Positions 3,331-8,311 of a DNA stretch of 64,000 bases are shown piece after piece. The stretch comes from Stegostoma tigrinum (lineage: Eukaryota), in assembly GCF_030684315.1 (NCBI RefSeq), contig NC_081396.1, forward strand, positions 558,001-622,000, given 5' to 3'. A model generated the notes under the pieces. The model made no database searches. It worked only from the letters and a program-made list of their open reading frames with translations, and was not told where the DNA came from. How positions within the stretch are numbered: the first letter of the stretch is position 1; every line of letters starts with the position of its first letter. The position numbers and the translations under genes are program-made.

Positions 3331-6032
3331 ATCAGTGCATGGTGACTCTGGTGTGACTAACCACACAATCCCACTCCCCTGTTACTGGCCCAGAGGGCTG
3401 TCAAATGTTTTCCGCTCAAGATCCATCCAATTCCATTTTGATCTTTACAGCTGAACCTGATCCTTCTGTCCTTTTAGGCAGAACATAACAAATCACTGGA
3501 ACACCCTGAGGAAAAGATGTTGCCATGAATTTTACCCTGAATTACTGTCTGTAAAAGTTTTTTTTCTCAGCTGTGCCATCAGGCTGACTGGACTGTAACG
3601 TGTCAGTGGTAGCCTGGCTTTTAATTCGCTCCTTTATATCCTTCATCCACTCTTTCAATTTCATTCAAAATTTTAAATACCTTTCCCTACCACAGAAGTT
3701 ATCAAATTAAAAGCTCCTAGATCCTCAATAATTAATGGTGAGAGATTTGAAATGTCTTTCAATGCTGACAGGAACTCACACCATACACTAAATGGGCCTC
3801 ATCCAGTCCATGACAGTCCAGCGTCAACATCCTACTGCAGACCTCACTTCTCACACTGAACCGATCCTTACAACATCTTTCCAGAATATTCCAGCTTTAA
3901 CCCCATTGATAGGTGGTGGGACTGTTCTACTGAAATTGTAGGACACAGAGGGTGAGAAAGGAGGAAGATAAAGTTCAAGTAATGAAAACTGGGGAAGAGA
4001 TGGAGAGACCAAGAAAAAGGAAAGGAATTGACAAAAATGGAAAAAAAGATGGTGAAAGACAAAAAGAAAGATGAGAAAGGAAGGAGAGTGCACCCAGTGA
4101 GTAAATTCAGACCAGAGGCTGAACAAGAACAACTGCAGAAACACATCTAAAAATTGCCCAACTACAAGAAACATTTGTCCACCTTTTTATAACTTCCTTG
4201 ATGGGGAAGAATGGGGGAATTGGAATCACACAGACGGAGGTCTTTCACTCCAGTAAAACTGACTCCTGACTCACCCTGTGTTTATGATCGGGGATGTTCC
4301 CAACACACAGTCCGTGTTACGGTCAAACACTGCAGCCAAGAAATTGTTCACAATGGGTGAGGCAAACATGGGGTAATCAGATCCCCCACCTGTTCCACAC
4401 TGTGCCTAGCATTCAATTCCAGGTCAGTCTCTGGAATTCAGGATCAGGCACTGGGCAGGAGGAGTGGCAGGTTGGAGAACTGCCTGTTTTATCTCACTCC
4501 CTGGAAGGAATTTCTAAACCAGTGAATCCAGGGAGATAGAGAGGAGGTGCAATGAAAGTTACTGTGTGCTTTTTGTAAAATTCATTCTTTTTGTTAAATG
4601 CCCTCAGGAGGAAATGTTGAAATCATGGTTGTCCTTCCTGGTAATTTAGTTAAAGAGGTTACTAAAAGAAATCTGTTTCAATCAAATGTATAACACATCT
4701 TAAAAAGCTCACGGGAGAATATCATAGCTCTCATGAATAATGCAAGAATCCGTTTTCTTTACATAACTCTCTCTTTTGCACCTGGGAAGGTTGTGAAATG
4801 TCAATTCAAGCTCCTTAATCGCGAGTGGATCATAAACCTGCCCCTGAGAAAGGATCATGCACTTCCTTTCCCATTCGCCTAACTTCTATTTTAGTGATCG
4901 TCCCCACTAAAAGAGCACAGTGGTCAGAACTGGCTGAATATTAAACTTTGTTCAACTAACCTTGTATTAAGAAATCATATTCCTGCCCTTTGGACTTTCA
5001 CTCAATCAGATTCAATCATCGACCAGTTCATGTTAGTGTGGAGTTCCCTTGTCAAATATTTTAATCCAATAATTGCAAATGTTGAAATAGTGAACAGAAT
5101 AACCTGATATCCACAAACTGAAAAATAATTGATTCAATGCTGTTATTGCTCAATAACATTTTCAACCAGATAGAAACCCTTCCAGTTCTCAACCCTGCAA
5201 TGTGGGTCCAGTTAAAGATGAAATTTCAGCGTGAGAGATGATTTCAAATCTCACAGATAGTTAAACTATTAATGTCAAGCCACACACTAAATCCTGCCTC
5301 AATGAGACACAACTTCATTCCACACATAGCATGTTCTGAGGAAGGGCCTCTGGACCTGACATGTTAATTCTGTATTTTTCCCTCACAGATGCTGCCAGAC
5401 CTGCTAAGCTTTCCCAGAAACTTTGATTTTGTTCTGCTGTTTGTTCAGAGAATTCACTGGAAAATGCTGCAAACTTGTTGGGGTGAGGCATTTTAATGAA
5501 CACTAATCCCTGTGTCTCACGCTGTCCAAATCATTTCTCTCTGTTTGCAAAATTATCAAGTGAAATCCAGAGCTTATTATTTTTAAAACTGTTCAACAAG
5601 GTATGAGGTCTCAAAACAAAAATTTAAACGACTGTGACACCAACTATTAAATCACAAAACAATTGGATCATGTCTTTAAACTCCAATTATAATAAATTCT
5701 TAACCCACCTCCAAATATCCTGAAGTCCAAAATCATCAAACTTGCCTGAACACAGTAAGTATCCTGACCAATGTCATCTGGATCAAGCTGAACATGCTGA
5801 ACAGATCCTGGAATCTTTATTATATTTCCTGGGGTTTAATATTAACTTTCAATACAGTCTCAAATTTCAGTTCCAGTTACTGGGTATATTCCTGATTCTA
5901 CAGAAATTCACCCCTCTGGGATAGAAACACCTAATTTTCCGAAATATCTCACTGATTTTACTGAATTATCAAAAACACAAATTAAATACAATGTACAGTA
6001 GAAAAAGAATAGAATTGAGAAGGTTTTCTTAC

Positions 6033-6080
6033 CTGAAGTCACTTCCAGGAAGGTTCCGCTCCCCCAGTGAGCAAGATAAT
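6033..6080 (-). CDS. Ig heavy-chain J segment (IgW-type), YLAHWGSGTFLEVTS
   Basis: WGxG motif, phase-1 splice donor TCAG|GTAAG at 6033/6032, directly preceded by a 23-RSS. Confidence 0.93.
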
Positions 6081-6119
6081 CACTGTGCTCTGTCTCTTTA
6101 TTCACCCAATACAATAACT
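6081..6119 (+). promoter_or_regulatory. 23-bp-spacer recombination signal sequence of the J segment
   Basis: Reading away from J: heptamer CACTGTG (6081-6087), 23-bp spacer (6088-6110), nonamer ACAATAACT (6111-6119). Confidence 0.9.
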
Positions 6120-6432
6120 GACCCTGAGCACCGTATATAATAATCCCCAGGGAATATAAATATAAACTGTGTTGGAACCTGGAGCAGCAACTTCCTGCGT
6201 TTACATCTGAAATTTCAACCTAATCCTATCCCAAATGTATCTATAAATGATATGTTTTCACATTTTCCTGTTTGCGGACACCAATTCCTGCAAATTACCC
6301 AGAAACAGAATTGCCACCTTTTGTCTTCTATTCTCCCAGAAATCGACATTTTCCCTGATAATCCGAGTCAATGTTTAGATATTTCTCTCTAGGAAACAGG
6401 AATGTGTAATCCATGGATACACACGTCATAGG

Positions 6433-6460
6433 AGCTTGTGTTAAACTTCATGCTGCTGTG
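6433..6460 (-). promoter_or_regulatory. 12-bp-spacer RSS at the 3' side of the D-like segment fused to V
   Basis: Minus strand: heptamer CACAGCA (6460-6454), 12-bp spacer GCATGAAGTTTA, nonamer ACACAAGCT (6/9 match to ACAAAAACC). Confidence 0.78.
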
Positions 6461-6782
6461 GCCAAGTTACCATGCACAGCCTCCCTTGCACAGTAATAGA
6501 TGGCGGTATCATGGACTGTCAGATTTGGAATCTCAATGGAGGTCGTAGAAAAAGATTTAATAGAAAAGGTCATTCGCCCCTGAACTCCGCTTGCGTAGTG
6601 AGTATCGTATCCTTTGTGATAAGAGAGTAACCATTGCAGTCCTTTTCCGGGGACCTGTCTCACCCAGACCATTCTGTGGACGTTAATATCTTCCCCACTC
6701 ACTGTACAGGTCAGTCTGTGAGACACCCCCAGCTTTTTCACAACTGACTCGGGCTGGTTCAGCACGATCTCAGACCGGACAC
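6461..6782 (-). CDS. Ig heavy-chain V exon (IgW-type) already joined to a D-like segment
   Basis: Acceptor ttcacAG at 6783. Open frame GVRSEIVLNQPESVVKKLGVSHRLTC..WVRQVPGKGLQWL..DTAIYYCAR-EAVHGNL has both canonical Cys and the FR2 Trp. IgW assignment rests on leader, FR1 and J resemblance to shark IgW from memory. Confidence 0.93.
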
Positions 6783-6902
6783 CTGTGAATAAAAGAGAAA
6801 CAGAAGAGAGTTCACTTTAATAAACCAGTCAGATAAACAGAGTCACAGAATCTGGGAAGAAGCGGCCTCACTGTGCGGGGAGAAAGCCTCGGGAGCTCTC
6901 AC

Positions 6903-6948
6903 CTGTCAGACAGAGCAGGAGGACGCAGAGATAAGGAAGAATCCCCAT
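6903..6948 (-). CDS. Leader (signal peptide) exon of the IgW-type V gene, MGILPYLCVLLLCLT(G)
   Basis: ATG at 6948, 46-nt exon, donor ACAG|GTGAG, 120-bp intron (6902-6783), in phase with the V exon. Confidence 0.92.
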
Positions 6949-7269: not shown

Positions 7270-7407
7270 TGAGAGATTCCAGTCAGTGTGCAGATATCTC
7301 CCTGAGAGAGAGAGGGGGGACTGAGAGACACCAGCCAGTGTACAGATATCTCCCTGAGAGAGAGAGAGAGAGGACTGAGAGACACCAGTCAGTGTACAGA
7401 TATCTCC

Positions 7408-7451
<44 letters not shown>

Positions 7452-7932
7452 ACTGAGAGACACCAGTCAGTGTACAGATATCTCCCTGAGAGAGAGAGGG
7501 GGGACTGAGAGACACCAGTCAGTGTACAGATATCTCCCGGAGAGAGAGAGAGGGGGGACTGAGAGACACCAGTCAGTGTATAGATATCTCCCTGAGAGGG
7601 GGGGGGCTACTGAGAGACACCAGTCAGTGTACAGATATCTCCCTGAGAGGGGGGGGGCGGCTACTGAGAGACACCAGTCAGTGTACAGATATCTCCCTGA
7701 GAGAGATAGGGGACTGAGAGACACCAGGCAGTGTATAGATATCTCCCTGAGAGAGAGGGGACTGAGAGACACCAGTCAGTGTACAGATATCTCCCTGAGA
7801 GAGAGGGGGGGGACTGAGAGACACCAGTCAGTGTACAGATATCTCCCTGAGAGAGAGGGGGGGGACTGAGAGACACCAGTCAGTGTACAGATAGCTCCCT
7901 GAGAGAGAGAGAGGGGACTGAGAGACACCAGT
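7270..7932. repeat. Compound minisatellite, about 12.5 units of ACTGAGAGACACCAGTCAGTGTACAGATATCTCCCTG + (AG)n + (G)n
   Basis: Near-identical 37-bp core repeated with variable-length purine linkers; unit length roughly 48-78 bp. Confidence 0.97.
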
Positions 7933-8011: not shown

Positions 8012-8218
8012 TAGAACATAGAACATAGAACATAGAACATAGAACAGTACAGCACAGAACAGGCCCTTCAGCCCACAATGTTGTGCCGACCATTGATCCT
8101 CATGTATGCACCCTCAAATTTCTGTGACCATATACATGTCCAGCAGTCTCTTAAATGACCCCAATGACCTTGCTTCCACAACTGCTGCTGGCAACGCATT
8201 CCATGCTCCCACAACTCT
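8012..8218 (-). mobile_element. CR1-type LINE 3' end with (AGAACAT)n tail
   Basis: Tandem AGAACAT followed by agaacagtacagcacagaacaggcccttcagcccaca, the inverse of the LINE 3' tails at ~17.95 kb and ~62.7 kb. Confidence 0.8.
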
Positions 8219-8311
8219 CAGAATGTGGGAAGAAGCGGCCTCACTGTGCGGGGAGAAAGCCTCGGGAGCTCTCACCTGTCAGACAGAGCAGGAGGACGCA
8301 GAGATAAGGAA
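8219..8311 (-). pseudogene. Orphan 93-bp duplicate of the IgW leader exon (ATG missing) and 5' half of the leader intron
   Basis: Matches 6846-6938 with one mismatch seen (gaatgtggg vs gaatctggg). Confidence 0.92.

Follow-up and report, generated by a model that had tools for sequence, protein, structure and literature searches.

Structure of the joined locus

The window analyzed here is a stretch of 64,000 nucleotides of the Stegostoma tigrinum genome (G000:C55:558001-622000). Its minus strand carries a heavy-chain gene in which V and D sequences are fused and J lies apart. Three further clusters on the same contig (at 232, 390, and 479 kb; L002-L004), all of them unjoined, share the J type and C exons of this gene and are called sisters below. 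The features of the joined locus, in window coordinates, are as follows.

6903-6948, minus strand: leader exon of 46 nt, read from the sequence, with a phase-1 GT donor at 6902
6485-6782, minus strand: IgW V exon of a divergent V family, without a terminal 23-RSS (Pfam V-set and tree)
6475-6484, minus strand: V-D junction, as putatively parsed
6461-6474, minus strand: D2-derived coding sequence, 3' end apparently untrimmed, in register with sister D2 (7/13 nt identical)
6465-6473, minus strand: splice donor within D (exon end 6471, GT 6470-6469; 7 of 9 consensus positions)
6433-6460, minus strand: 12-RSS, the 3' signal of D2 (2 + 3 mismatches to consensus; aligned to the sister D2 RSS)
6120-6432, minus strand: D2-J spacer of 313 bp without a further D (RSS scan; covered by spliced contigs of run X5)
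6081-6119, plus strand: J 23-RSS, facing the 12-RSS and identical to that of sisters L002 and L003
6033-6080, minus strand: IgW J with a WGSG motif (read from the sequence; GT donor at 6032)

A leader intron of 120 nt separates the leader from the V exon, which starts at 6782, has its YYC motif from 6498, and matches the Pfam V-set with E 1.4e-11 over profile positions 2-91 of 109. No 23-RSS stands at the V end; 24 nt follow TGTGCAAG before the heptamer CACAGCA (6460-6454), which together with a 12-nt spacer and the nonamer ACACAAGCT (6441-6433) forms the 12-RSS. The 23-RSS of J (6119-6081) begins after exactly 313 bp and is followed by an intact J with the splice donor CAG/GTAAGA. The first-pass annotation, made from the letters of the window, had described this same arrangement, including the missing V-end signal, the intact leader and splice sites, and the 313-bp gap, and only its length for the extension after V (~23 nt) needed correction. 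Its view that no further D precedes J also holds, as a relaxed scan of the interval between the 12-RSS and the J RSS detected no other RSS. The unjoined reading frame stops 14 codons past the last Cys codon, within the RSS spacer (6450-6448).

The 12-RSS is weak relative to the consensus and is missed by strict RSS scans; it was recognised by alignment to the sister clusters and by the relaxed scan. Judged by sequence comparison, it is more than a chance match, because alignment puts it in register with the D2 3' RSS of three sisters with the same heptamer CACAGCA, and because the D-J spacer behind it is 81-91% identical to the sisters' spacers. Its nonamer is one mismatch further from the consensus than those of the sisters, and the G at nonamer position 7 is also present in the IgM D1 signals of unjoined clusters in the same genome.

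Constant exons and relationships of the V exon

The first-pass annotation had pointed to the region left of the window as the place to look for intact C exons, and there we found six C1-set exons on the same strand (C55:556.7-546.6 kb), all open and with AG/GT borders. C1 is ~7.3 kb downstream of J (G000:C55:556714). The same cluster includes a TM exon (543.8 kb), a secretory tail, and a sequence matching the IgW short-form tail. The six C exons match nurse shark IgNARC (IgW) with 82-92% aa identity. A single V, the D region, J, and the C exons are thus arranged in one minilocus in the same orientation, and no second V or second J was found within the 64-kb window. In a 48-row V tree, which excludes L022 (no YYC match), the V falls inside a 20-row clade (100/100) that holds all named IgW V, the IgM-type loci being outside, and it pairs with a white shark IgW-type V with support of 100/97. 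On these comparisons of C exons and V, the joined cluster is an IgW heavy-chain cluster, the type that had been assigned to it at first pass.

The V protein shares 57-61% aa identity with those of the sisters. At the DNA level, identity to the sisters is 90-99% for the promoter, leader, and FR1 (leader plus leader intron, 98-99%), 57-58% for the remainder of V, and 77-82% for the J-C intron. For the C exons, pS was about 0.05 and pN/pS was 0.42-0.48; this ratio is no clean sign of selection because the low synonymous divergence suggests gene conversion. The joined cluster appears to be an old cluster lineage, the exons of which would have been kept alike by selection or gene conversion. A protein labelled as S. 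tigrinum matches the C exons of the sisters at 93-100%.

Comparison with unjoined clusters

Each sister has the layout V-23, 12-D1-23, 12-D2-12, 23-J. Since three sisters with the same J type are unjoined V-D1-D2-J clusters, the fused segments here are V, D1, and D2, and hence the locus is a VDD-J join in which two of the three joining steps have been made. The gene had previously been called a pre-joined VD-J: pre-joined it is, the 23-RSS of V and the V-D1 and D1-D2 spacers being gone, whereas VD-J has to give way to VDD-J, both D segments being in the join. That all IgW V genes of this family might end in the same extension plus a 12-RSS is contradicted by the three sisters in the same genome, which keep split V, D1, D2, and J. 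No unjoined copy of this V was found in the genome; the 48 protein matches (with 148 of 148 candidates scored) and the 7 DNA matches each contained one full match. As to the donor segments that the first pass had proposed to identify in unjoined IgW clusters, the sisters align with D1 and D2, while the true donor D1 and D2 are absent from the genome.

To place the locus among the heavy-chain genes of this species, 30 V loci were compared, 24 of which are V of IgH clusters that have a J or lie close to one (L001-L023 and L026); the other six (L024, L025, and L027-L030) were left out of the IgH count. Six of the 24 are joined, 16 are unjoined, and two (L005 and L022) are unclear. The joined loci besides the IgW cluster are L017 (V-DD-J), L020 (VDD-J with decayed signals), L023 (VD-DJ), and L019 and L026 (both VDJ-joined and broken). 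These five are IgM-type clusters with four layouts, and L017 keeps both signal pairs. In protein searches, the closest V elsewhere was a white shark gene model (65-69%). The same searches returned no ortholog sharing the junction, an absence that carries little weight because they were shared-word searches.

Probable inheritance of the join

We used read contigs from three runs (X1, X5, and X6, from samples S1, S2, and S3) among 20 listed. X1 may come from the assembly's own sample; X5 and X6 come from another study. One X1 contig spans 6168-6756 with no differences, and the junction is bridged, again without differences, by an X5 contig (6354-6570) and an X6 contig (6352-6500). X5 and X6 share two fixed differences from the reference, C6571A (M to I) and A6725T (V to E); Ile at 6571 is the white shark residue, and Glu at 6725 is the residue of two sisters. 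The same junction is therefore present in three samples, two studies, and two alleles, the fixed differences pointing to separate animals. Because one junction occurs on two alleles, the VDD-J join is likely inherited rather than the mark of a somatic clone, and the heritability proposed at first pass is supported by the contigs of the second allele (S2 and S3).

A somatic VDD-J intermediate from a lymphocyte has the same layout. According to the accessible part of PMC2435157, such intermediates are frequent in shark thymocytes, and spleen contains transcripts of them. Nevertheless, we consider a somatic intermediate or a misassembly in the reference extremely improbable in view of the identical junction in all three samples, both studies, and both alleles, the lack of an unjoined V copy in the assembly, and a DNA contig that is unbranched and has a depth of 7.0 compared with 7.5 for a flanking contig.

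Junction sequence and origin of the join

The last 13 nt before the 12-RSS align with sister D2 (7/13 identical), and the junction at 6475-6484 can be parsed in two ways. In a RAG-type parse, it would consist of 3 untemplated nt, GGCTG as a 5-nt remnant of D1, and TG as 2 P nucleotides; GGCTG has its counterpart in sister D1, and TG is palindromic to the start of a D2 that begins with CA, the pattern expected of P nucleotides. Alternatively, GGCTGTG occupies the position of the sisters' D2 5' heptamer and may be a heptamer leftover. The junction letters fit both readings. The 5-nt match to D1 has P 0.05 (random) or 0.17 (shuffled 11-mers), and TGTG at the D2 edge has P 0.008-0.016, both in post hoc tests. 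Either way, the D1/D2 parse relies on diverged sisters, the donor D1 and D2 of this V family being absent from the genome.

The heptamer reading corresponds to an ordinary germline deletion without RAG, which would have broken the DNA just 5' of D2, left the heptamer part CTGTG, and produced the same present anatomy. The exact position of GGCTGTG at the sister D2 5' heptamer site, followed by 14 nt (the D length of IgM segments in this genome) and the 3' RSS, agrees with this, as does the positional P value of TGTG; moreover, RAG-type joints are described without RSS leftovers in the part of PMC2193156 available. The D1 remnant and P nucleotides account for the same letters, however, and the other break lies ~2 nt from where the sister V heptamers begin, as RAG cutting predicts. 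Collapse by microhomology offers no explanation because both look-alike stretches, at the V end and in the junction, are present. We regard a non-RAG deletion as unlikely. RAG activity in germ cells is favoured over it on the sequence, since the break on the V side falls where the signal would stand and the junction shows no sign of a microhomology collapse.

Transcripts of the unjoined gene

The leader intron is skipped in an X6 contig and by the loose ends of X5 contigs, and neither run has cover within the intron. As the contigs are spliced and the intron is uncovered, X5 and X6 were taken as RNA, and the gene was thus taken as transcribed, the run type being judged from splicing alone. X5 contigs extend over the leader, V, D-J spacer, and J as far as the J donor, as unjoined read-through RNA would; both X5 and X6 read through the unjoined D-J gap. 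The X5 loose letters at the J donor (6033; two-contig consensus) do not match C1; 19 nt of them match the J-C intron (G000:C55:557801-557819), possibly a cryptic exon.

The V contig of X6 divides at 6471: one branch is the read-through, the other a 59-nt contig, 29 letters of which are exactly the first C1 bases after the AG acceptor, joining 6471 to C1. The contig depths were 19.9 for the 59-nt splice, 56.2 for the read-through, and 94.2 for V, and they do not rank the forms. The donor within D (ATG/GTAACT) has the phase of the J donor and is absent from sister D2. The D-to-C1 splice product is in frame, its junction reading His and then Asp, and it has no J. This J-skipping splice is represented by one contig in one run (X6) of three, and X5 shows no branch at 6471. 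A D-J-joined contig was found in none of the three runs (X1, X5, and X6), and contigs drop rare, diverse junctions. The first-pass claim that the gene is one RAG step from a complete V region is accordingly borne out in its geometry, while the transcripts seen are read-through and the J-skipping splice, with none of the D-J-joined kind.

In an AlphaFold2 model of the unjoined product (mean pLDDT 83.9; 26-row alignment), the V-set strands extend as far as residue 96 and the tail is disordered, with pLDDT under 50 at residues 100-107. According to the model, both J-less products (read-through and D-to-C1) are without the G strand that J supplies. General Ig biochemistry predicts poor stability for such products unless a partner completes the sheet. 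The D-to-C1 product, which is without the J-encoded G strand, is for this reason more likely a by-product than a working chain.

These transcripts bear on a different view of the locus, namely that the join is inherited but the cluster has been frozen for a new role, with D2-J joining rare or lost and RAG-independent products made instead, either a chain of V, D, and C1..C6 without J or a short-tailed free V domain, similar to a surrogate chain. Unjoined forms are indeed the only transcripts seen, and the D donor is unique to this cluster, is in the correct phase, and is used in X6, where 59 nt is the length expected of a true splice if a single G is common to the donor and the other exon ends. 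Joined genes have also been proposed to evolve into rearrangement-free receptors, with VpreB cited, in the accessible text of PMC2193156. The phase match, however, has a one in three chance; the splice is confined to that single contig, with X5 unbranched; the modelled J-less V has no G strand and a disordered tail; both RSS are retained; and there is neither protein evidence nor a same-junction ortholog in the protein searches. We consider this view improbable. Still more specific, and doubtful indeed, is the idea that a J-less, invariant, RAG-independent IgW heavy chain, made through the gained D donor, is a natural step from an antibody gene to a VpreB-type surrogate receptor.

Taken together, the locus is an intact IgW cluster with V, D1, and D2 fused; the fusion was probably made by RAG in germ cells, with one somatic D2-J step left. 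This explanation is based on the sisters, which are unjoined with the same J type and spacer, and the lack of an unjoined copy of this V; on the bridging of the junction in X1, X5, and X6 on two alleles; on the six open C exons and the TM exon, kept although the V family and the J-C intron are old lineages; on the unchanged J 23-RSS and a nonamer whose position 7 G recurs in unjoined IgM D1 signals; and on the five other joined IgH loci in the genome. RAG in the germ cells of an ancestor would have fused the three segments, as read from the D1-like remnant and from a P-like TG that adjoins the untrimmed D2; an argument for RAG joining in germ cells, with P nucleotides, is made in PMC2193156, as far as its available part goes. 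One 12/23 signal pair would then be left for B cells to cut in order to join J, presumably in frame about one time in three, and the resulting antibodies would vary at a single junction, the first half of their CDR3 being fixed. Before the D2-J join, the active promoter would give read-through RNA stopping 14 codons past the last V cysteine, with the in-frame splice from the GT within D to C1 as a side product.

Relation to known joined genes

Germline joins of the VD-J, VD-DJ, and VDJ types are typical of cartilaginous fish and affect up to about half of the loci, according to the accessible parts of PMC5192425, PMC4279169, and PMC3308330, and pre-joined D segments are mentioned for bamboo shark IgNAR in that of PMC8692893. 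The partly joined IgH clusters of horn shark and skate (VD-J, VDD-J, and VD-DJ; PMC2193156, PMC5192425, PMC4279169, and PMC3308330) resemble the present one in that V and D are fused with one RSS pair left and in that joined and split clusters are mixed in one genome. In the available text of these sources, they are described as IgM or general IgH and not named IgW, whereas the cluster here is IgW; and expression of the joined horn shark H chains was not detected (PMC2193156, same limitation), whereas the IgW cluster is taken as transcribed.

With the long-form IgW of nurse and sandbar shark (IgNARC/IgX), the cluster shares the leader, V, WGSG-type J, six C exons, secretory and short-form tails, and TM exon, and it differs in the pre-joined VDD and the J-skipping splice. 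The IgW splice forms given in the reviews, as far as accessible, have 2, 4, 6, or 8 domains or are V-less, and a J-less form is not among them. Nurse shark IgM1gj is likewise an expressed germline-joined heavy chain in those reviews, but it is a fully joined VDJ with three C domains, while the IgW gene still lacks the D-J join. The somatic VDD-J intermediates of nurse shark IgM have the same layout and the same D-J read-through RNA; in the accessible part of PMC2435157 their junction is unique to each cell, in contrast to the one junction that recurs here across samples and alleles. The VpreB surrogate light chain, as treated in the available part of PMC2193156, is also a V domain without J sequence and RAG-free, by analogy and not homology. 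Unlike VpreB, the product here has no known strand-supplying partner, and the locus keeps J and putatively working RSS. Neither a joined IgW cluster nor an IgW splice lacking J turned up in the literature covered, which lay outside the primary IgW papers and most subscription journals.

Partly joined shark IgH clusters are thus already known, and what is new is the IgW isotype, the transcription, and the J-skipping splice, the last from one contig. The function of partly joined shark heavy-chain genes has so far been in doubt, judging from the accessible text of PMC2193156. Here an intact, transcribed joined gene of the IgD-like class has a V distinct enough from the three sisters to be tracked by reads or primers, which makes it testable whether B cells complete the final join more often than in split clusters and whether a joined gene can escape rearrangement through splicing. 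Should the J-less chain prove to be no more than splicing noise, the locus would be a neat IgW case of a phenomenon already known.

Other observations on the IgW and neighbouring loci

The J of the joined cluster has five more coding nt ahead of its Trp codon (6067-6080) than the J of L002-L004; the sisters may have lost them. L003, the 232-kb sister with J at ~234 kb, has the J donor CAA/GT, not CAG/GT, and is inverted relative to the other three IgW clusters. L005 (G000:C54:14161056) combines an IgW-clade V, weak signals, and apparently one D with an IgM-type J only ~800 bp away, and C1-set matches lie at C54:14171928 and 14174730; it is possibly a chimeric or one-D cluster.

The six V loci left out of the count (L024, L025, and L027-L030; G000:C55:1.05-1.19 Mb) form a separate IgH-like V clade with 23-RSS, ~0.5 Mb from the IgW clusters. 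No J was found within 1.5 kb of them, and they are perhaps V segments of a neighbouring T-cell receptor region.

The leader exon/intron junction (6843-6938) recurs 1.3 kb upstream as an inserted 96-nt copy with 98% identity (8216-8311); in the stretches compared around the three sisters, no equivalent was found. Directly upstream of the promoter, ~7270-7930 is a tandem array with a roughly 50-nt unit and (GA)n tracts, of which the sisters carry a shorter or altered form.
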